Source: a virus
Taxonomy: Duplodnaviria; Heunggongvirae; Uroviricota; Caudoviricetes
Length of the DNA stretch: 9,822 nt
IMG/VR virus record: IMGVR_UViG_2537561934_000018
Reading direction: 5' to 3' (one strand)
Below the pieces are notes generated by a model. The model was not told where the DNA came from and did no database searches. It saw only the letters and a program-made list of their open reading frames with translations. The translations under genes and the position numbers were made by a program. Positions 1 to 9,822 of this stretch are shown one piece after another (within the stretch, counting starts at the first letter, position 1; each line of letters starts with the position of its first letter).

Positions 1-960
1 TTACTCCTTGTTCATTGCGTACAGCCCATTAACCAGAGCAAACTGTGGCACCCCGTCCGCGATGAAAGTCGCATTAACTCCGCAGGCTTCGCGGATAGCG
101 GGTGCCACAATCTCCGCCCCGCCACCGACAACCATCACCCGCCCGTAACCCGAAAAAACCGCCAGCGCGCGGATCACGCGTTGTTTCAGTGTTTCTTCCT
201 TTTCACGAATAACCGCCATCAGGCTGGCGTAATGCGCGTCATTGTGGATGTGCTGGCGCAGCCAGGCTTCATCATGGCGATGTTCGATAATGGTATTGGC
301 GATGTGGTGACTGGTGCGCATACCGTTAGTGGCCATCACCGACAGTACGGCATCGGCCATCAGAGAAACGCCTACGTGTGGATCGCAAAACACCTGGCTG
401 ATACCTGCCAGTTGCCCCTGAACCTTTGCCACATCCAGCGTGGTTCCGCCCAAATCCACAATCAGCAGGGATTCAAACGGACTCATGTCAGCCAGTGCCT
501 TAAAGCCAGCCGGAATGGATTCAGGCATAACCCGCACGTTACGGATAGTGAATGCTTCGCCGTTCTGGTACTCCACCGGGCGCATAACGTTCGCTTTTTT
601 GCGGTTGATGTTGGCCATGTCCGGCTGTGCGTTTGTGTCGAAATATTCGCTCAGTGGCAGGGTGACAACCACATCCACTTCCTGTGGTGTGATGCCTGAT
701 TTGACCAGCGCGTGATGAATGGCAATTACATTCACATCGCTGTACTGGTATTGCGTGTCGGTCGTCTGGACAAAGCGATCGCTGACCGGATCAAAACCAT
801 AGCGCACGCCATCAAGCATGTAGTTCGCGGGCTGCGTGCCACCGAACGGCGCAGACCATTCCGACTTGAAGCTGTTTGGGCTGATGGCGTTGCGGCGTTC
901 GCCGTTCTCAGTCCATGCCAGCTTGATGTTGGTGGAGCCGTCATCGATACAAATTTTCAT
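1..960 (-). CDS. ParM/StbA-family actin-like ATPase (319 aa), complete ORF
   Basis: ORF track 1..960; stop TAA is the reverse complement of 1-3 and ATG is at 960-958, preceded by an AAGGAAAAG Shine-Dalgarno. N-terminal IDDGSTNIK motif plus DLGGTT and VVGGGA motifs are typical of actin-fold ATPases. The N-terminal ~110 aa closely resemble plasmid R1 ParM (StbA) as I recall it. The start overlaps the last 20 nt of the upstream A gene. Confidence 0.8.
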   Translation of the reverse strand: MKICIDDGSTNIKLAWTENGERRNAISPNSFKSEWSAPFGGTQPANYMLDGVRYGFDPVSDRFVQTTDTQYQYSDVNVIAIHHALVKSGITPQEVDVVVTLPLSEYFDTNAQPDMANINRKKANVMRPVEYQNGEAFTIRNVRVMPESIPAGFKALADMSPFESLLIVDLGGTTLDVAKVQGQLAGISQVFCDPHVGVSLMADAVLSVMATNGMRTSHHIANTIIEHRHDEAWLRQHIHNDAHYASLMAVIREKEETLKQRVIRALAVFSGYGRVMVVGGGAEIVAPAIREACGVNATFIADGVPQFALVNGLYAMNKE

Positions 961-3859
961 GTCGCTTTTCCTTATGTTGATTAATTAATCGTTTACGGGA
1001 TTCTGAAATCCCGTTTTTGTCCTGTTTTATGCGCGCTTCATATATCGCGGCGCGTTTTTGCTCATTTACGGGATTTGTGAATCCCGTTTCTGTCTGTTTT
1101 TTGTTTCCACTGGTCAGGCCACCCCGCAGCAGGTCTGCTTTGCGGCGGGCGCGTTCAGTGGTTTCACTGATTCTCTGTGCGTGCTCTGCGTCGCGGATGG
1201 CGCGCAGCATGTCAGAAAGCACGGTAACGGGTGTTTTCATGGTGTTCTGGTCTTGCTGAAGTGTGGATGCCAGGCGTGCGGCGGCTTCGGGGTCTGATGT
1301 CCCCAGCTGTTCCAGATAGCTGGCGACCGGGTTATGGCGGATCTCCGTACTGCTTACGCCGTGGTTACGGCTCAGGCGCTGCCAGAGCTGCGTGATCCGG
1401 CTGTCCGGTCGGGTATCCGGTTTGCGTACAATTTCAAATCCCTGCGGTGCAATGTTGCTGCCGTCAACGTACAGACTGCCGCCCCGTAACAGGTGCTGCA
1501 TCTGCTGTTCACCGATATGCAGGCCGAGAGATTCAGCAGACTCCCGCCATTCTTTAGCGAGTAGTTCGTGGTTATCAGGCAAAGGCCGCTGCTGTTTGCG
1601 GCTCTGTGTCCAGCTCTGCATTTCATCACGGCTGTTTTTTGCCTGTTTGTCACGAAGCGAACGCATCAGCGCCCGGCGTTCGTGCCGTTTCAGTGAGCGC
1701 ATCCATTCGTTCACTTCAACGCCGTCAGGGAGCTGCGGCCACGGTGCTGGCCGTTCTTCCGGCTGTTCTGTCCCGTTGTTGTCCGTTTCCTGTACACGGG
1801 GACAGTTATTGCCACGAGTCCAAGGGGCGGCAGGGCCGCCCTGAAGGTCAAAACCATTTTCGCGGGCGCTGTCTTCCGCTTCCGGTTTACGTCTTACCAG
1901 CTTCCAGTTATCCGGATGCGTGCACACGCGGGAAGACTCCCCGATGAGCGGCGACCAGATCCCGTAAATCTGTACGCTCTGTTCGCCGTAATCGTTCAGC
2001 CCATCTGCGAGGTCGTAGGCGGTGCGAATCAGGTAGTCTTTGCGTGGAACAAGTACGCCGCCCTGTTTCTCTATGTAGGTGGCAAAACATCCGGCATCAG
2101 CGGCAGCGAGTACCGCATCCATTGCGTCATCCTTCAGCCGTTGCGGGCCTTCCGGGTTGCGTGCCATCTGGCTGGCAAGGCGGCGCAGCTCACGCCACAC
2201 TTGACGGGAGGGGATGCCAAAGAACTGGAACTGGCGGACGCGGTGAAGGCGTGCCCAGCCGATGGCGCGCTCCACGCTCTCGGCCATTGATTTTCCGGTT
2301 TCGTGGTCAACGCGTGGCTTGCCCGTTTTCGGGTCGATGCCATCCACGGCGTGGCTGTCCAGGTTCTTTCCGATGTAGGTGGCGATGTAGCTGGTTGGCG
2401 TGCCTTTTGAGCCGTCGACGTACTCCGCCTTAAAGCGCGGAGTAATATCATTGCCCAGTTCGTGGCGGTCTTCCTGAATGGCAATATCGCGGGTGTGGGA
2501 CACAATGGTGTCGATTTCTTCCGGATGAGCAAAGACCATCATATGCCAGTGCACGGTGCCGTCATGGTGAGGCTCCACCGTGCGGATGCCATACCAGCGC
2601 AGGCCGTCGCGGTTCAGTTTTTTGCGGACCGCCGCAAAAAACGTGTTAACCAGGTAATCGCTGGAGTCGCGCATGGTGGCCCCGTTCCATTTGGGATTCG
2701 GATGACCGTTCTCTGTTGTGGCGTGGTATTTTGACGGGCAGGTGACAGTCAGAAACACCGCTTTGTCGCCACGGGCTTCGGCCAGAAGTTCCAGTCCCTT
2801 CATGGTGGCCGTCATTTCTGCCTTACGGTGAACCGGGTTACTTACTCCCGCGTAATACACCGTCTCGAGATCAATCGTGAACCCGTCTTCATTTTCCAGC
2901 ATGAAACTTTTCAGGAAATCGCGTGTTTTCTCGCGCTGTGCGCGAAACTCGCTTAACGCGTCCTGGCTCAGATAGGGTGATGTTTTTCTGGAAACCAGAC
3001 AGGCGGCGCGGAGTTGTTCTTCCCGCCACTCACAACGTAACAGCCACAGTTTGCGTTTCCACCAGTCCGCACAGGTCAGGCGAAGGATTGCGCCCGGCAG
3101 CAGTTCCGTGTCCGGTTCGTTCCTCCGGTCTTTGTCTGTTGTCAGTGCGTCATAATGTGGAGGCATGGCGTGCAGGTGTAACGCCATGCGGGCCAGCATC
3201 TGATACGCCTTCAGCGTTACATCCATGGTCAGCTCGCCATCTCTGGCACCGAAACCATCACAGAGAGTCTCAAAGGTGCTGCTGAACATTGCCGCCGTCA
3301 TGGTGGCCAGCGTCTGTATCTGGTGCTTGTTAAGCTGCGGCAGGTAAAGCAAATCGTCCAGGCGTTCGCGTCCGGCAAGGGCGCGATAACCCGGTGTCAG
3401 CCAGCGGCTGTCGGTGCGCTCCAGACGTTCGAATATTTTGCGCAGGGTTCCGTGCGCGTAGCGTTCTGCCTGCCAGCTCTTTTTGCCTTTCCGGCGATCG
3501 ACTTCCTGTTTTTTGCGCAGGAAAGAGAGGTGGCGAATAAGCGGATCGCGCAGATAGGACGGCAGCAGGCGCAGCGAGGCCATGGCTTCATCCACCGCGC
3601 CGCGTGCCTGTTTTCTGGCGTCTCCTGCCAGTGTGATGGTTTTGTCCTGTTTTTCCTGTGCGTCCAGGCTTTTATTAATCAGGTTGCCCAGCGGCGTGGC
3701 GGAGAACGCCGCATCAGCCATTTCCTGGCGGCGCTCGTTCTCTGCCCGGTAGGCATCCAGCCAGGAGGAAAGCGCGGATTCAGGAGCGGGGATCCCCGTT
3801 CCTTCACGCCCCACTGCGTGGCGCGGTTGTTGCCAGTCCCTGATGTACTCCGTTGACAT
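941..3859 (-). CDS. P2 gpA-family rolling-circle replication initiator (HUH endonuclease), 972 aa
   Basis: ORF track 941..3859; ATG at 3859-3857 with a GGAG about 10 nt upstream. HUH-type motif HWHMMVF is encoded at 2531-2551 and the paired-tyrosine motif YIATY at 2375-2389 (verified by reverse-complementing the DNA). This matches the two-tyrosine active site described for phage P2 A protein. Position immediately downstream of the cox-side early genes is as in P2. Confidence 0.8.
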   Translation of the reverse strand: MSTEYIRDWQQPRHAVGREGTGIPAPESALSSWLDAYRAENERRQEMADAAFSATPLGNLINKSLDAQEKQDKTITLAGDARKQARGAVDEAMASLRLLPSYLRDPLIRHLSFLRKKQEVDRRKGKKSWQAERYAHGTLRKIFERLERTDSRWLTPGYRALAGRERLDDLLYLPQLNKHQIQTLATMTAAMFSSTFETLCDGFGARDGELTMDVTLKAYQMLARMALHLHAMPPHYDALTTDKDRRNEPDTELLPGAILRLTCADWWKRKLWLLRCEWREEQLRAACLVSRKTSPYLSQDALSEFRAQREKTRDFLKSFMLENEDGFTIDLETVYYAGVSNPVHRKAEMTATMKGLELLAEARGDKAVFLTVTCPSKYHATTENGHPNPKWNGATMRDSSDYLVNTFFAAVRKKLNRDGLRWYGIRTVEPHHDGTVHWHMMVFAHPEEIDTIVSHTRDIAIQEDRHELGNDITPRFKAEYVDGSKGTPTSYIATYIGKNLDSHAVDGIDPKTGKPRVDHETGKSMAESVERAIGWARLHRVRQFQFFGIPSRQVWRELRRLASQMARNPEGPQRLKDDAMDAVLAAADAGCFATYIEKQGGVLVPRKDYLIRTAYDLADGLNDYGEQSVQIYGIWSPLIGESSRVCTHPDNWKLVRRKPEAEDSARENGFDLQGGPAAPWTRGNNCPRVQETDNNGTEQPEERPAPWPQLPDGVEVNEWMRSLKRHERRALMRSLRDKQAKNSRDEMQSWTQSRKQQRPLPDNHELLAKEWRESAESLGLHIGEQQMQHLLRGGSLYVDGSNIAPQGFEIVRKPDTRPDSRITQLWQRLSRNHGVSSTEIRHNPVASYLEQLGTSDPEAAARLASTLQQDQNTMKTPVTVLSDMLRAIRDAEHAQRISETTERARRKADLLRGGLTSGNKKQTETGFTNPVNEQKRAAIYEARIKQDKNGISESRKRLINQHKEKRHENLYR
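995..1087. repeat. Tandem pair of perfect 8-bp-stem palindromes (ACGGGATT-N4-AATCCCGT) 73 bp apart, flanking a GC-rich palindrome, each followed by a T-run on the + strand
   Basis: Hairpin 1 is 995-1014 (loop CTGA) followed by TTTT to 1018; hairpin 2 is 1068-1087 (loop TGTG) followed by TTTCTGTCTGTTTTTT. Flanking sequence is about 85 percent identical over ~38 bp. A GC-rich palindrome at 1031-1054 is followed by TTTTT (1055-1059). All lie inside the last ~55 codons of the A ORF and 35-130 bp upstream of the ParM-like start. Confidence 0.6.
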
Positions 3860-3865
3860 GCTGAC

Positions 3866-4231
3866 TTACTCCGCTTTGCCGCTCAGTGCGGCGTGGCAGA
3901 CGGCAGCCAGCCGCTGAATTTCCAGCACGGTGTCTTCTGTGTCGGCATGGCGATGTGTGATGCGGGTGCTGTCGGCAATCACATCGACGATTGCAGAGGA
4001 TGGGCGCTGGTAAATGCCAATAACGGACGGGGTGCCACCTTCAATGCGGTAAAGCCTGTAATTTCCCTCGTGGCTGTCAATCATGTAACGACCATCAATA
4101 ACAATCTTTCCGTCAGCGAGCTGCGGTACAGGCAGGGATTTCAGGTACATGTCATAACGATCACGCACGCGAGCGGCAAGATCACGCTCTGTGTTGAGCA
4201 GGTATTCAAGAAAGTCGTTGGCGAGAATCAT
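3866..4231 (-). CDS. Hypothetical protein, 121 aa, immediately upstream of the A gene
   Basis: ORF track 3866..4231; ATG at 4231-4229 with an AGAGGA Shine-Dalgarno ~9 nt upstream. Its stop TAA (3868-3866) lies 7 nt before the A start. Balanced amino-acid composition, unlike the antisense + strand ORF 3893..4396. No motif recognised. Confidence 0.5.
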   Translation of the reverse strand: MILANDFLEYLLNTERDLAARVRDRYDMYLKSLPVPQLADGKIVIDGRYMIDSHEGNYRLYRIEGGTPSVIGIYQRPSSAIVDVIADSTRITHRHADTEDTVLEIQRLAAVCHAALSGKAE

Positions 4232-4303
4232 TGCGGCAATCCTCTTGTTACAGATGTGCGAAGGCCTCCCGCCGCAAGGTGCAGGAAAGGCCTGGTACCG
4301 GAA

Positions 4304-4534
4304 TTAATGGAGTTTGTTTTGCTGCTGGATGAGATCCTGAAGAGACAGGAGGTCTTCCGCCAGATAGCTGAATACAGCGGCGCAGTAGTCGGCTGAAATA
4401 GTGCTGTTGAGTCTGTGCAATGTGTTGGATTGCATGATAAAGGCGATGTGTGCAGCGCGGGTGAGTCTGCGATCGATTTCAGTCTGGATGTGACGACGTG
4501 CAGCGTATGCGCGCTGTTGTTTGCGGTTTGCCAT
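4304..4534 (-). CDS. Hypothetical small protein, 76 aa
   Basis: ORF track 4304..4534; ATG at 4534-4532 with an AGAGG about 9 nt upstream. The Shine-Dalgarno region is part of an 11-bp inverted repeat (see repeat 4544..4635). No motif recognised; coding status uncertain. Confidence 0.4.
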   Translation of the reverse strand: MANRKQQRAYAARRHIQTEIDRRLTRAAHIAFIMQSNTLHRLNSTISADYCAAVFSYLAEDLLSLQDLIQQQNKLH

Positions 4535-4543
4535 GGTGTGGCC

Positions 4544-4635
4544 TCTGTAGTTGCAAGTTTTGAAAACTCACCATCCAGAGGTGGAAAACTCGGGGCGGTG
4601 AGACGTACAGGGTTTCCACAACCGGCAACTACAGA
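4544..4635. repeat. 11-bp perfect inverted repeat (TCTGTAGTTGC at 4544-4554 and GCAACTACAGA at 4625-4635), with a third 9-bp copy CTGTAGTTG at 4740-4748
   Basis: Read directly from the sequence. The proximal arm abuts the Shine-Dalgarno of the 76-aa ORF and the third copy lies inside the loop of the terminator hairpin at 4721-4755. A GC-rich stem-loop with a UUCG loop on the - strand RNA (4640-4659) sits next to the distal arm. Confidence 0.55.
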
Positions 4636-4713
4636 ACCCGGCCCGACCGAAGTCGGCCCCATACGCCCCACCATAATTCTGACGCGAAAAAGACGTGGCG
4701 ATACAGTACGCAC

Positions 4714-4755
4714 AAAAAAACCGCTGGCGCGGTTGTGCGCTGTAGTTGTCAGCGG
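4714..4755 (-). terminator. Candidate rho-independent terminator for the SPFH cassette transcript
   Basis: On the - strand the sequence reads CCGCTG...CAGCGG (4755-4750 and 4726-4721), with an inner ACCGC-GCCA-GCGGT hairpin (4733-4720), followed by seven T (4720-4714). Confidence 0.5.
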
Positions 4756-4870
4756 GGTGGAAATCCCGGCACCCGTTTTATGAGGTGCAGCGGAAATGTA
4801 ACCTGACTGATTGCGGCATGGCAAGCGGTTTTTTTGTGAGAACGGCATACTAAAAAATCCTGATACTGCT

Positions 4871-4895
4871 CCGGCCAGCGGTTTTCACTGGCCGG
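4871..4895. other. GC-rich stem-loop (CCGGCCAG-N9-CTGGCCGG) 7 nt downstream of the SPFH stop codon
   Basis: 8-bp perfect inverted repeat with a 9-nt loop. On the + strand it is followed by AT-rich ATTTAATT; on the - strand a U-run only follows after ~11 nt. Possible bidirectional terminator or mRNA 3' stabiliser. Confidence 0.4.
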
Positions 4896-4901
4896 ATTTA
4901 A

Positions 4902-5732
4902 TTACTTCACGGGAACGAACGGAACAGCGGTGTTACTGGTCATGTATTGCGGCAGCGTGCCGTTCCATTTGTTGATCGCTTCCAGCTCCATAACGCCGGG
5001 ATTCTGGCGCAGAGCTTCGCCGCGTAAACGAATGGCGTCGGCTTCAGCCTGGGCTTTTGTGCGAATGGCATCGGCCTGTCCGGCAGCTTCTGCGCGCAGC
5101 ATGTTGGCTTCAGCTTCGCGTTGCTTGACTTCCTGTTCACGTTGCAGGGTTTTCTGGTTTGCCGTGACTTTGGCGTTAATGCTGTCGATAACGGTTGGCG
5201 GATATTCCGGTTTACCGACATAAGAGAGGCTCATGACCTGAATGCCGATGGGGGTCATCTCTTCCTGAATATCTTTAAGTGCTGAATCCAGCAGTTCAGA
5301 CTTACCACCGTCGATAAACTTATCGGTGGTCATTTTGCTGGCCAGTCGGTTGAGTGCATCGGCGATCTTCTGGCGCAGGTCAGTGTCGGTAATGTCATCC
5401 ACGCCTTTGCGGTAGGTCTGAAACACTGTGGTAACTTTGGATGGATCAACCTTGTAGGCCACACCGATGTGATAGCCGATGGTTGTGCCGTCACTCATCT
5501 GGAAGCTGAACGGCTCATCGTAGGTCTTCATTTGTTTGAAGGTCGGGAAGATGTAAACCTCTGTATTCCAGCCTGTCCAGTAGCGGCCAACGCCAACCAC
5601 TTCACCGACTCCTTTGTCGTCGCCCAGTTTGTTGACTTTGATGCCCACATTACCTGGCTCAACGCGATCGCAACCAACCAGCAGGATGGCGGCAAAAAGC
5701 GGGATAATCTGAAAGAGTCTGAATTTCTTCAT
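4902..5732 (-). CDS. SPFH/Band-7 (stomatin/prohibitin/HflKC-like) domain lipoprotein, 276 aa
   Basis: ORF track 4902..5732; ATG at 5732-5730 overlaps the upstream stop (ATGA), with an AAGGAA Shine-Dalgarno. The N-terminus MKKFRLFQIIPLFAAILLVGC is a lipoprotein signal with lipobox LVGC, followed by Asp at +2. The central region resembles an SPFH domain and the C-terminus is the Ala/Glu/Arg-rich coiled-coil tail typical of HflK/HflC and prohibitins. Fold assignment is by eye. Confidence 0.65.
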   Translation of the reverse strand: MKKFRLFQIIPLFAAILLVGCDRVEPGNVGIKVNKLGDDKGVGEVVGVGRYWTGWNTEVYIFPTFKQMKTYDEPFSFQMSDGTTIGYHIGVAYKVDPSKVTTVFQTYRKGVDDITDTDLRQKIADALNRLASKMTTDKFIDGGKSELLDSALKDIQEEMTPIGIQVMSLSYVGKPEYPPTVIDSINAKVTANQKTLQREQEVKQREAEANMLRAEAAGQADAIRTKAQAEADAIRLRGEALRQNPGVMELEAINKWNGTLPQYMTSNTAVPFVPVK

Positions 5733-5932
5733 TGTTTGATTTCCTTGATGTACTTACTGAAAAGGCGAACAACGCCTGCCGGGTACAGCATGGCAATGAA
5801 AATGCCCAGCAATACCAGGAAGGAGCTGTCTGATGAAATCATTCGGGGGAGTAGTCCTGCATACAGAATGAGAGAAATGAGGACGCATACCAGCGCCCAC
5901 ATGTATGCGCGAAACCAGGTCTTTTTGTTCAT
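5729..5932 (-). CDS. Small membrane protein with two predicted transmembrane helices, 67 aa
   Basis: ORF track 5729..5932; ATG at 5932-5930 overlaps the upstream stop (ATGA) and its own stop overlaps the SPFH start. Two hydrophobic stretches (roughly residues 8-28 and 38-58) are separated by a short polar loop. Confidence 0.6.
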   Translation of the reverse strand: MNKKTWFRAYMWALVCVLISLILYAGLLPRMISSDSSFLVLLGIFIAMLYPAGVVRLFSKYIKEIKQ

Positions 5933-6147
5933 GTTGATTGCTCTCTTTTGTTATTCAGGAAAAAGTCAAAAACGTTATCGATGCGCATCATGAGTTCGCG
6001 CTGCATCGCTTCTGGTGTTTCCGGTTCGCCAGGCGACCCCAGCGTTGCGCAGAAATCAGCGATCTCGTGTTGAATGAGTTCTTTCAGCGTCGGTAAGGAA
6101 TTCATGTGTGTGCGGCGATGCTTGCGTGTGATTCGCCTTCTGCTCAT
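5929..6147 (-). CDS. Hypothetical protein with basic N-terminus, 72 aa
   Basis: ORF track 5929..6147; ATG at 6147-6145 overlaps the upstream stop (ATGA) and has an AGGAG Shine-Dalgarno 8 nt upstream. An internal Met-15 start has no Shine-Dalgarno. N-terminus is Arg/Lys-rich (MSRRRITRKHRRTH). Confidence 0.55.
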   Translation of the reverse strand: MSRRRITRKHRRTHMNSLPTLKELIQHEIADFCATLGSPGEPETPEAMQRELMMRIDNVFDFFLNNKREQST

Positions 6148-6347
6148 TTACGCTGCTCCTGTACCTGTCGGATAAGATTTACTCGCGCCACGTTGGTGGC
6201 GCAGAAGTAAGTGCCGTCAGTGAGGTAGATGTGGTGTGCATCCTTTTCCGAACGATGTTTGTCGATAGTGGTAATCAGGCGTTCGTCGACTTCGTATTCA
6301 CGTCCTCTGGAGGTAAAGCGAACGACGGGAAAATGCTTAATTGCCAT
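6144..6347 (-). CDS. Hypothetical protein, 67 aa
   Basis: ORF track 6144..6347; ATG at 6347-6345 preceded by an AAGGGGG Shine-Dalgarno. It starts 26 bp after the stop of the 136-aa gene and its stop overlaps the next start. Confidence 0.55.
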   Translation of the reverse strand: MAIKHFPVVRFTSRGREYEVDERLITTIDKHRSEKDAHHIYLTDGTYFCATNVARVNLIRQVQEQRK

Positions 6348-6373
6348 TGCCCCCCTTTTTTTGTCCAGTAACC

Positions 6374-6784
6374 CTATGCGTTAAATACGGTGTGTTGGGC
6401 GTCATCAATGAATGCGACTTGAGAGCGCTCTATCAGGTGGAGATTTGTCAGAAGCGCTGATTCCCTTATGGGGTAAGGAGTGATCAGGTATTTGTCCTGT
6501 AATCCGGCGATAATGGTGTATCGCTGTGGCTCTGAGCCAATTGTGTAAATAAGGCGTCCGGTGTTAGATAAATCCAGTCCGGTGACTGGTTGAGTTTTGA
6601 AAAGCGTAAGTTCCGCACCCTGTTCTTCGATGATTTTGGCGGCTTCTGCCGTGACTTTTGCAACTATCATTGTGTGGGTAGCGACGTCTATATGATTATT
6701 TGCTACGGCTTTTTTCGCCACTTCGCTTTCCATCTTTGAAATTTCTTTCAGTGCTCTGATAATACCTTCTTCTTTTGCGTTCAT
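6374..6784 (-). CDS. Hypothetical protein, 136 aa (first gene after an AT-rich gap)
   Basis: ORF track 6374..6784; ATG at 6784-6782 with a GGAG Shine-Dalgarno 8 nt upstream. It is preceded by a ~92-bp AT-rich intergenic gap (6785-6876). No motif recognised. Confidence 0.6.
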   Translation of the reverse strand: MNAKEEGIIRALKEISKMESEVAKKAVANNHIDVATHTMIVAKVTAEAAKIIEEQGAELTLFKTQPVTGLDLSNTGRLIYTIGSEPQRYTIIAGLQDKYLITPYPIRESALLTNLHLIERSQVAFIDDAQHTVFNA

Positions 6785-6876
6785 TTTATATCTCCGTTAT
6801 TTACGTGTGCGAATACCTCCGCGCATGCGGATTGTTTTCACGTTTTCTTATTTAACCTGATGTTTTATTTGTATGG

Positions 6877-6990
6877 TTATTCACCAGTGAAAAAACGTTC
6901 GATCTTTTTTACTGAATGAATAATTCGCATAATCCCAATGGCGCAGGCCACCGAAATAATCATAACAAGCCATGAGATAAATATACTCAT
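6877..6990 (-). CDS. Small hydrophobic peptide, 37 aa (MSIFISWLVMIISVACAIGIMRIIHSVKKIERFFTGE); not in the supplied ORF track
   Basis: Hand translation of the - strand: ATG at 6990-6988 overlaps the TGA stop of the 80-aa gene (ATGA at 6990-6987), with a GGGGAA Shine-Dalgarno-like sequence upstream and stop TAA at 6879-6877. One predicted transmembrane helix followed by a charged tail. Confidence 0.35.
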   Translation of the reverse strand: MSIFISWLVMIISVACAIGIMRIIHSVKKIERFFTGE

Positions 6991-8760: not shown

Positions 8761-8826
8761 CGGTTCACCAGGCATTTATTTCCCAGAGCTGTGATCAAGA
8801 TGATGTTTTCATTGGAGGGCTTCCTT

Positions 8827-9822
8827 ATGTCGATTAAGAAGCTCGCTAATGGCAAATTCTGTGTGGACGTGCGGCCAGCTGGATCAGAAGGAAAAAGATT
8901 CAGGCGGCGATTTGATACTCGTGGTGAGGCTGTTTTGTATGAGCGTCATGTATTGCAGCATTACCACGACAAAGACTGGGTTGATAAGCCAACAGAACGG
9001 CGCTCGCTGAGGGAGTTGCTGGATTGTTGGTGGCTATACCACGGGAAAAATCATCCTTACGGTGCGATGGAGCGAGTGCGTATTTCTGCGGTCATTAGTG
9101 ATCTTGAAAGTATTAATGTTACACGCAGCGACCAACTTACTCGTAAGAACATAATTAATTATCGGTTATTGTTGCTTAACCGCGGAATAAAACAATCCAC
9201 GGTTAATCGTTATTGCGCAATGATGAGTGGTTTCTTCACAAAACTAATTGACGCAGAGGAATATTCTGGGGCTAATCCGTTTCATGATGTGAAAAAACTT
9301 AATATCAAACAGCCTGAAATGGCTTATTTGTATCATGAAGATATTCCACGATTACTGGAGTTGTTATCTGGTGATGAATTAAAAGCTGTCTTGTTGTGTC
9401 TGGCAACAGGTGGAAGATGGAGTGAGGTTGCAAATATCAAGGGGGAGCATGTTATTAGCGGCAAAGTCATTTTTATGGAAACCAAAAATGGGAAGCGTCG
9501 CGTTATACCTATATCGTCAGAACTGGAGTGCATGATTAAAACAAAGGCCACTGGTCGTTTAATTTATCCAAGTTATGCCGCTGTCAGAGCTGCTATCAGA
9601 AAGGTGAGGCCCGATCTTCCTGAAGGGCAGTCAATACATGTTTTACGGCATACCTTTGCCACTCACTTCATGATTAATGGTGGGAATATCATCACTTTGC
9701 AGAGAATACTTGGGCATAGCACTATTCAGCAGACGATGACTTATGCCCATTTTGCACCGGATTATCTGCAGGATGCTGTGCGCTTTAATCCTGTGGCTGA
9801 GTTGTCCAGATATTGCCCATAA
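8827..9822 (+). CDS. int: Tyrosine integrase, P2 Int family, 331 aa
   Basis: Start trimmed from track ORF 8791..9822 (GTG) to ATG 8827, which has a GGAGGG Shine-Dalgarno 7 nt upstream. The N-terminus MSIKKLANGKFCVDVRP and the C-terminal catalytic region (TGGRWSE, HVLRHTFATHFMINGG, LGHSTIQQTMTYAHF, i.e. the R, H-x-x-R and Y motifs) closely resemble P2 Int as I recall it. Stop TAA is at 9820-9822, the end of the window. Confidence 0.9.
   Translation: MSIKKLANGKFCVDVRPAGSEGKRFRRRFDTRGEAVLYERHVLQHYHDKDWVDKPTERRSLRELLDCWWLYHGKNHPYGAMERVRISAVISDLESINVTRSDQLTRKNIINYRLLLLNRGIKQSTVNRYCAMMSGFFTKLIDAEEYSGANPFHDVKKLNIKQPEMAYLYHEDIPRLLELLSGDELKAVLLCLATGGRWSEVANIKGEHVISGKVIFMETKNGKRRVIPISSELECMIKTKATGRLIYPSYAAVRAAIRKVRPDLPEGQSIHVLRHTFATHFMINGGNIITLQRILGHSTIQQTMTYAHFAPDYLQDAVRFNPVAELSRYCP

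Follow-up and report, generated by a model that had tools for sequence, protein, structure and literature searches.

The stretch of DNA analysed here, called the window throughout, comprises 9,822 nucleotides (nt) and covers the early region of a prophage that is related to P2 and belongs to the P88 type (genus Xuanwuvirus). The records nearest to its positions 4700-6900 are Escherichia coli chromosomes (99.1%) and phage P88. This work deals with two genes on its minus strand, one encoding an SPFH/Band-7 lipoprotein of 276 amino acids (aa) (4902-5732; phrog_200, E = 4e-112) and the other, directly upstream, encoding a mini membrane protein of 67 aa with two transmembrane (TM) helices (5729-5932; phrog_1130, E = 7e-23), referred to as the mini-protein. 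Both genes overlap in an ATGA at 5729-5732, which confirms the translational coupling that had been proposed for them in an earlier reading made from the letters without database searches (the sequence-only reading). A GC-rich hairpin on the same strand (4871-4895) starts 7 nt past the stop codon of the SPFH gene and lies at the 3' end of an inserted unit (4839-5938), which is present in some phages of this lineage and absent from others.

The borders of this unit follow from blastn comparisons with phage vB_EcoM-569R5 and Citrobacter phage Shae_phiSM, in which the homology covers 3801-4838, breaks off, and resumes at 5939 or 5954. Both relatives lack the SPFH pair, and therefore the mobile unit amounts to about 1.1 kb and contains both genes of the pair together with the hairpin. 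This unit is inserted past the stop codon of the Ead/Ea22-like gene and ahead of the isrK promoter region, with isrK/C4 as downstream neighbour and 3' boundary of a variable slot. In Shae_phiSM the same slot is occupied by a gene annotated as 'DNA binding protein', and in 569R5 by almost nothing. The clean indel confirms that the genes are an accessory insertion in this phage lineage. Their absence from P2 was also correctly supposed, as P2, with the genes cox, orf78, B, orf80-83 and A, has no counterpart of the pair between cox and A.

However, the sequence-only reading had drawn the insertion as a cassette of five genes (4902-6784), and this was not borne out. The five minus-strand open reading frames (ORFs) exist at the proposed sizes (136, 67, 72, 67 and 276 aa), but only three of four claimed ATGA junctions were found (6144-6147, 5929-5932 and 5729-5732), and a 26-nt spacer with a Shine-Dalgarno-like run lies between the 136-aa gene and its neighbour. 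Upstream of the pair lie the gene of a basic protein of 72 aa (5929-6147, minus strand; phrog_4144), which is a variable backbone gene outside the module, the backbone gene of a soluble basic protein of 67 aa (6144-6347, minus strand; phrog_3459) and the 136-aa protein gene (6374-6784, minus strand; phrog_9338). The basic N-terminus predicted for one of the small proteins is found in the 72-aa protein (MSRRRITRKHRRTH), the gene of which shares its 3' part with the Ead/Ea22-like gene of P88. These genes assort independently. Phages 569R5 and Shae_phiSM have the 136-aa and the soluble 67-aa genes without the SPFH pair, P88 has the pair without the 136-aa gene, and the soluble 67-aa gene occurs in all three, with or without SPFH.

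The pair is a normal component of the type phage P88, where gp11 (membrane protein) and gp12 (lipoprotein/putative SPFH; NC_026014) occupy the equivalent position in an early operon of this kind, with 97% (mini-protein) and 99% (SPFH) aa identity to the window, the same ATGA coupling and the same isrK/C4 RNAs downstream. P88 differs upstream, where it carries the Ead/Ea22-like gene, a winged helix-turn-helix gene and the 67-aa gene. In addition, both proteins belong to established PHROG families (200 and 1130) and RefSeq lists an 'SPFH domain-containing protein'. The gene family is therefore known and annotated and does not represent the undescribed system for which it had been taken.

Hairpin/terminator structures downstream of the genes, as in a moron insertion, had been noted as well. 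The hairpin at 4871-4895 is strong (minimum free energy -22.3 kcal/mol, z = -4.05, with none of 200 shuffled sequences folding as well), but no T-run adjoins it, and the nearest terminator-like site (4734-4719) lies inside the isrK small RNA match. A scan for sigma-70-like consensus sites, which is weak evidence, gave no promoter-like site on the minus strand ahead of the five-gene stretch; it returned 4 sites versus 4.8 expected by chance. Of the moron layout, the presence/absence polymorphism at 4839-5938 in an otherwise syntenic backbone was seen, whereas neither a promoter, in the weak consensus scan, nor an intrinsic terminator of its own was found.

The N-terminus of the SPFH protein (MKKFRLFQIIPLFAAILLVGC-DR) follows, as a sequence pattern, that of a lipoprotein with basic n-region, hydrophobic h-region and a lipobox of the type [LVI][ASTVI][GAS]C. 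As claimed from the letters, the lipobox reads LVGC, with Cys21 followed by Asp22 at position +2. In an alignment (A1) of 10 homologues with 28-93% identity to the window protein Cys21 is invariant, as are K255, W256, G258 and P261 of the C-terminal motif AINKWNGTLP...PFVPVK. In E. coli an Asp at +2 acts as inner-membrane retention signal (Lol-avoidance rule), and Asp22 predicts that the window protein is retained in the inner membrane of this host. The homologues of P88, Stx2 phages, P1-like phages and phiE125 also have Asp at this position.

The SPFH identity was confirmed with Pfam, where Band_7 (PF01145) matches residues 23-209 over profile positions 2-176 of 176 (E = 5.7e-31, 108.4 bits versus a cut-off of 23.6). 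AlphaFold modelling from the single sequence reached a mean predicted local distance difference test (pLDDT) score of only 46.6, so that a monomer model based on an alignment of 47 sequences (AlphaFold2, pLDDT 75.5) was used. In this model a beta-rich N-terminal part (strands at 20-95) is followed by an alpha/beta part (helices at 97-159), a long helix of 65 residues (179-243) and a disordered tail, in which the C-terminal 21 residues score below 50. The long helix past the SPFH core corresponds to the HflK/HflC-like helical tail of the sequence-only reading. Foldseek searches of the Protein Data Bank (PDB) returned HflK/C, prohibitin, erlin and stomatin as top matches (E about 1e-12), followed by flotillin, QmcA-YbbJ and the vault shoulder domain, with the whole range extending from 1e-12 to 1e-6 over about 250-300 aligned columns. 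With Pfam, AlphaFold and Foldseek in agreement, the protein has the SPFH fold.

For the 67-aa protein, hydropathy confirmed the two hydrophobic segments that had been claimed. The two ends are rich in Lys and Arg (3 and 4 residues), and one Arg and one Asp are found in the short loop that joins the helices, so that by the positive-inside rule both termini are predicted to be cytoplasmic and the loop periplasmic. This loop, LLPRMISSDSS in the window, is conserved as (L/V)-P-x-(L/M)-(I/V)-S-x-x-(D/S)-(S/T) in the mini-proteins of eight phages, together with a proline in the second TM helix. The mini-protein belongs to no family in Pfam, NCBIfam or PADLOC; the Pfam scan gave only a sub-threshold match to RseC_MucC (E = 0.022), no Pfam domain is recorded for 120 homologues, and no holin family of Pfam or PHROGs was matched by the protein, the gene of which sits in the early operon. 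In a phmmer search against 1.8 billion cluster representatives it retrieved only 14 small relatives besides a false positive, the repeat protein P0268, and no informative domain fusion was among them. When the window is compared with Stx2 phages, the mature SPFH proteins are 92% identical and the mini-proteins only 23%. Nevertheless, the mini-proteins of the Stx2 phages retain the loop motif and the proline of the second helix. This combination of a nearly identical SPFH protein and a partner in which the loop motif alone is kept fits a contact between both proteins via the periplasmic loop.

Homologues of the SPFH protein were found by tblastn in 767 phage records. These include Stx2-converting phages (92%), phiP27 (about 90%), P1-like phage-plasmids, N4 (62%), Vequintavirinae, Ounavirinae, PaP3-like Pseudomonas phages, Burkholderia phage phiE125, Caulobacter phage phiCbK, Staphylococcus and Enterococcus myoviruses, and haloarchaeal viruses. 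The gene ahead of the SPFH gene was read in ten representative phage loci. A homologous mini-protein with two TM helices was present in an Stx2 phage, a P1-like phage, N4 (gp19), Seu621, Aeromonas phage Gekk3-15 and phiE125, which brings the number of phages with this combination to eight, counting the window and P88. In Seu621 (Vequintavirinae) the mini gene is placed one gene further upstream. The paired genes overlap by 1-11 nt or are separated by a gap of at most 3 nt across P88, Stx2, P1-like, N4, Aeromonas and Burkholderia phages. The same tight pairing is seen in a Salmonella prophage-like element, where the pair lies among replication genes, in a Yersinia pMT1-like locus, and in loci of Pantoea, Dyella, Pseudomonas, Leptospira, Flavobacterium, Caulobacteraceae, Sphingomonas and Acidobacteriota.

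In the Stx2a phage Stx2_EH2201 (locus L002, 2643-3655) the SPFH gene is annotated as 'serine protease' and the 62-aa mini ORF (3467-3655), which overlaps it in an ATGA, is not annotated at all. The same label is found in phiP27 and several Stx2 phage records. We rejected it, since Pfam finds Band_7 alone in the 92%-identical window protein. In the P1-like phage Ro157c2YLVW (locus L003, 4001-5045) the mini/SPFH pair lies between tRNA genes and ban, in the C1-controlled ban operon region. Canonical P1 (L006) carries plp, upl and tciABC at that place, which indicates a variable slot in the ban operon region. Plp and Upl of P1, considered as a possible equivalent of the pair, were rejected, as plp encodes 125 aa on the opposite strand.

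The pair of N4 (locus L004, 3413-4837), formed by gp19 (membrane protein) and gp20 (lipoprotein), is located in the early/middle region. Its SPFH protein is 62% identical to that of the window, its mini-protein belongs to the same family and has the loop motif, and the genes overlap. In difference to the window, the pair belongs to a virulent podovirus, has Tyr-Asp instead of Asp behind its lipobox, and follows gp18, a member of phrog_1510 'superinfection exclusion' (P22 gp17-like). Likewise, in the gene table of the Vi01-like phage PhiSH19 an SPFH protein adjoins a 'superinfection exclusion protein' (PMC3220722). The location of SPFH genes beside such genes in both phages may be meaningful or a coincidence. 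A homologue was seen by mass spectrometry in a preparation of a Vi01-like phage (PMC10892097).

A scan of one genome per species gave 80 loci, 79 of them usable, from Gammaproteobacteria, Alphaproteobacteria, Spirochaetota, Bacteroidota, Acidobacteriota and others. Of the 79 SPFH proteins, 75 have the K-W-x-G motif at their C-terminus. The automatic assignment of lipoboxes and start codons at these loci is crude, and the resulting lipobox count (52/79) and +2 statistics were not relied on. A hidden Markov model (HMM) of the mini family yielded 39 hits among 7,290 ORFs, exactly one each in 39 of the 79 loci, and zero false hits on about 31 kb of control DNA. All 39 hits are on the strand of the SPFH gene and upstream of it, and all but one are directly adjacent. 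About 10 of these loci had provided seed sequences for the HMM, and therefore about 29 are independent. The exception is a Shigella flexneri locus (L019, 2030-3831), in which about 770 bp with IS1-like ORFs (InsA-like, as judged by eye) lie between the two genes; immediately upstream there is a transposase-like gene.

In two cases both proteins are fused in frame, namely on a contig of an Iamiaceae metagenome-assembled genome (MAG) (L026, 2718-3933) and in a P1-like protein of 347 aa (P0001, 8 member sequences). Both fusions have the order first TM helix, loop, second TM helix, basic linker, signal peptide/lipobox and SPFH domain, an order that fits the association of the two proteins and is the one demanded by the topology proposed below. 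They may be Rosetta-stone fusions or frameshift artefacts.

In Pseudomonas fungipugnans (L028, 1432-3828) a CI-like repressor gene, a gene of the 'sigma factor' family phrog_3282, the mini gene and the SPFH gene follow each other on one strand, so that the pair is placed two genes past the repressor, and an integrase gene is found downstream. In lambda, rexAB has a similar position, and the pair could accordingly be expressed in the lysogen. In a Sphingomonas MAG (L056) the pair (about 2636-3774) is flanked by recF and gyrB, in a core region of the chromosome, and no phage-type domains were detected among the sampled neighbours in Leptospira (L030) and in a Binatus MAG (L072). From these three contexts it follows that the module is not restricted to phages, and the family appears to have cellular members. 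Among 5,426 complete E. coli genomes, 715 (13%) contain the SPFH gene, at 417 chromosomal and 389 plasmid places. Most of the plasmid records listed are about 75-110 kb in size. The plasmid-borne copies are similar to the ones in P1-like phages. At least 80% of the queried 2.2-kb stretch (4700-6900) is present in only 79 E. coli genomes. A count of 1,785 genomes obtained with the same 2.2-kb query was discarded because it was inflated by flanking matches.

Several known systems resemble the pair in part. HflK/C are located on the periplasmic side of the inner membrane, and the window protein would have the same orientation. The E. coli HflK/HflC-FtsH complex (PDB 7vhq, 7wi3, 9cz2), with SPFH core and long wall helix, is the best structural match (E = 7e-13, about 290 columns). 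However, sequence identity is only 15-18%, HflK and HflC are two paralogues anchored by N-terminal TM helices whereas the window has a single gene and a lipid anchor, and the C-terminal KWNG-x-LP motif appears to be specific to the window subfamily. All HflK/HflC equivalog scores are far below their cut-offs (TIGR01932, 25.7 versus 134.4 bits; TIGR01933, 23.5 versus 159.4; NF008181, 20.7 versus 660). QmcA faces the cytoplasm, in contrast to the window SPFH protein, which should be periplasmic. SPFH-NfeD operons such as QmcA-YbbJ (PDB 8z5g) likewise combine an SPFH gene with a co-oriented small membrane-protein gene, but the partner in the window has 67 aa and no NfeD/oligonucleotide-binding-fold domain in Pfam.

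In Staphylococcus Kayvirus, the gene of the small membrane protein MbpV abuts the SPFH gene mbpS. MbpS keeps a C-terminal EKWNG, but has an N-terminal TM anchor and no lipobox, and MbpV has one TM helix with a long charged tail and no detectable homology to the family with two TM helices. A functional precedent for a detached anchor is offered by SamG-SamH-SamI (YdjGHI) of Bacillus subtilis, where an SPFH protein is reported to be brought to the membrane by small membrane proteins (bioRxiv 10.64898/2026.02.06.704340). SamI is cytosolic, and the genes belong to a psp stress operon outside phages.

We interpret the pair, with a probability of roughly 0.55, as a periplasm-facing SPFH cage with a detached TM partner that acts as an accessory membrane module. 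Closed membrane-bound domes are known for HflK/C, prohibitin, erlin, stomatin, flotillin and QmcA. As all solved SPFH proteins of this layout (core, long helix, C-terminal tail) form such domes, we infer that the lipoprotein, with its entire folded part predicted in the periplasm, would oligomerise and cover the inner membrane as a cage from the periplasmic side. The mini-protein would form a hairpin in the inner membrane and expose its short conserved loop to the periplasm. An acyl anchor enters the outer leaflet only, and therefore the partner with its two TM helices plausibly supplies the TM ring. It could thus serve as detached TM 'fence' of the cage, the role of the N-terminal TM helices of HflK/C, or alternatively be the enclosed client. 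As part of the rightward Pe/cox early operon, and with no detectable promoter of its own, the module is probably expressed upon derepression of the phage. The positions of the pair in the window, the P1-like phage, N4 and Pseudomonas are those expected for early/leftward transcription or linkage to a repressor.

The structural part of this interpretation is more secure than the role. The module would most likely insulate or stabilise part of the inner membrane in the infected cell and might, at this membrane, block incoming DNA or proteins. Such exclusion of superinfecting phage is the most likely selective benefit, with about one chance in three, and modulation of membrane proteostasis is the next candidate. 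Exclusion or insulation is favoured because this single reading fits the virulent, temperate, cellular and repressor-linked occurrences alike.

Several observations weigh against the cage with detached partner or its proposed role. The mini-protein was not detected in 40 of the 79 loci, mostly from Bacteroidota and some Caulobacter relatives. Among the phages, the neighbour of the SPFH gene encodes a protein with three TM helices in phiCbK and one with a single TM helix in PaCe, and Harbringer has none. The +2 residue is Tyr in N4 and Glu, Arg, Ser, Asn or Gly elsewhere. It varies by lineage, and therefore inner-membrane retention is not predicted family-wide. Cage and fence are proposed purely by analogy with solved SPFH proteins and the timing of expression is read solely from gene order. 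In Kayvirus the MbpV/MbpS genes lie beside those of the endolysin and Tgl, which points to lysis or secretion (PMC7150955). Finally, the apparently cellular copies suggest a general membrane housekeeping function for which no exclusion would be needed.

In a wider form of the interpretation, which is tentative and to us rather doubtful, the pair would be a widespread exoplasmic SPFH cage with a separate fence of two TM helices that phages borrowed repeatedly from bacteria and express from early or immunity regions, in order to shut out competitors or membrane-acting host defences. If this is true, N4 gp19-gp20, P88 gp11-gp12 and their relatives form a new class of superinfection-exclusion or counter-defence module. 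In the searchable literature no functional study of this SPFH subfamily was found, and a 2026 paper on an N4-like phage states that the reason for an SPFH gene in the phage genome 'remains unclear' (PMC13239085). Nor did this literature contain the conserved partner, the fusions, the precise extent of the mobile unit or the cellular copies of the pair. SPFH proteins are universal membrane scaffolds, and the window subfamily occurs in classic phages and many bacterial lineages. The pair therewith provides a small, genetically tractable two-gene system, with P88 and 569R5 as natural plus and minus phages.

Alternatively, the module might serve the lysogen in anti-phage defence or abortive infection, with the SPFH cage restraining the mini-protein as a latent pore until infection. 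In agreement with this, the module is present in some P88-like phages and absent from others, in a slot of variable content, has been exchanged horizontally between unrelated temperate phages (87-93% nucleotide identity), and in the Pseudomonas prophage is co-directional with and downstream of the CI-like repressor gene, like rexAB in lambda; the mini-protein is also holin-like (small, two TM helices, charged C-terminus). However, we regard this explanation as unlikely. In the window the module belongs to a repressed early operon and an own promoter was not detected. Furthermore, the pair also occurs in phages with a strictly virulent life style (N4, Vequintavirinae, N4-like phages of Erwinia and Klebsiella) and at apparently non-phage loci, e.g., recF-gyrB in Sphingomonas, which argues against a function specific to lysogen protection. 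No model of PADLOC-DB v2 was matched by the SPFH protein, and the mini-protein gave only a 20-residue match to PDC-M18B (E = 0.0078). Support for a defence function is also absent from the searchable literature.

We give the same low credence to a mimicry of HflK/C, in which the phage cage captures FtsH or competes for it and so alters the degradation of membrane or regulatory proteins, e.g., CII-like factors. HflK/C are among the best sequence and structure matches, their periplasmic orientation would be shared, and one phage record labels its homologue 'putative FtsH membrane protease modulator'. Yet the equivalog models are missed by a wide margin (23-26 versus 134-159 bits), prohibitin, erlin and stomatin match equally well at this level of identity, and a single SPFH gene does not provide a heteromeric pair. 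In addition, the virulent phages that carry the pair make no lysis-lysogeny decision.

A helper function in lysis timing or secretion, where the SPFH scaffold organises a holin-like mini-protein, Sec or the export of a lytic enzyme, is quite improbable. It is derived from Kayvirus, in which MbpV/MbpS lie between lysK and tgl and the authors suggested that MbpV resembles holins and that MbpS may aid the Sec-dependent export of Tgl (PMC7150955). But MbpV, with its one TM helix, is not detectably homologous to the mini family, no holin family was matched, and the pairs of the window, P88, P1-like phages, Stx2 phages and N4 are found in early regions with no annotated lysis genes adjacent to them.

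Even less probable is a surface or vesicle lipoprotein of lysogenic conversion that acts on the animal host as virulence or immunomodulatory factor. The candidate precedent is PM0222 of Pasteurella multocida, a prophage-encoded HflK/C-like SPFH protein that was reported to occur in outer-membrane vesicles and to act as TLR1/2 agonist, and the deletion of which attenuates virulence in mice (PMC9872710); it may or may not belong to the window subfamily. The window gene is common in prophages of pathogenic E. coli including Stx phages. However, the family is widespread in environmental bacteria and virulent phages, and Asp at +2 predicts retention in the inner membrane of E. coli. That all five genes at 4902-6784 form one functional system, as the common strand, the three ATGA overlaps linking four of the five genes and the 79 E. 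coli genomes with at least 80% of 4700-6900 might suggest, is hardly credible, as the genes assort independently among P88-like phages and beyond that lineage only the mini-SPFH pair recurs.

The remaining features of the window follow the arrangement of a P88-type early region. The integrase gene (8791-9822) and the C-type repressor gene are on the plus strand. On the minus strand, cox (Pfam Phage_Cox), a DUF4761 gene, a 115-aa gene, a DUF4754 gene and a 37-aa membrane ORF (6877-6990) are followed by the five ORFs described above, the small RNAs isrK (4714-4788; Rfam, 63.6 bits) and C4 antisense RNA (4591-4678; Rfam, 76.8 bits), both on this strand and above the gathering score, the gene of a 76-aa 'derepression protein' homologue, a 121-aa gene, the gene of a 972-aa replication endonuclease and a ParM-like gene.

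The stretch at 6785-6986 had been regarded as an AT-rich gap, but most of it is filled by the 37-aa ORF, which is ATGA-coupled to the DUF4754 gene and annotated as membrane protein in P88. This ORF is kept in P88, 569R5 and Shae_phiSM. Past it, an intergenic stretch of about 90 nt with a small hairpin (6818-6831) is conserved in four P88-like phages irrespective of the gene that follows.

The isrK and C4 RNAs together with the 'derepression protein' homologue (4304-4534) resemble an RNA-controlled antirepressor module of the P1/P7 immI type within a P2-like phage. A 206-aa ORF (4228-4848) that runs over both RNAs is probably spurious. The ParM/actin-like segregation gene (1-960, minus strand) adjoins the replication endonuclease gene in a prophage that also carries an integrase, and at the same place in P88 a 'plasmid segregation protein ParM' and a 'partition protein' are annotated.

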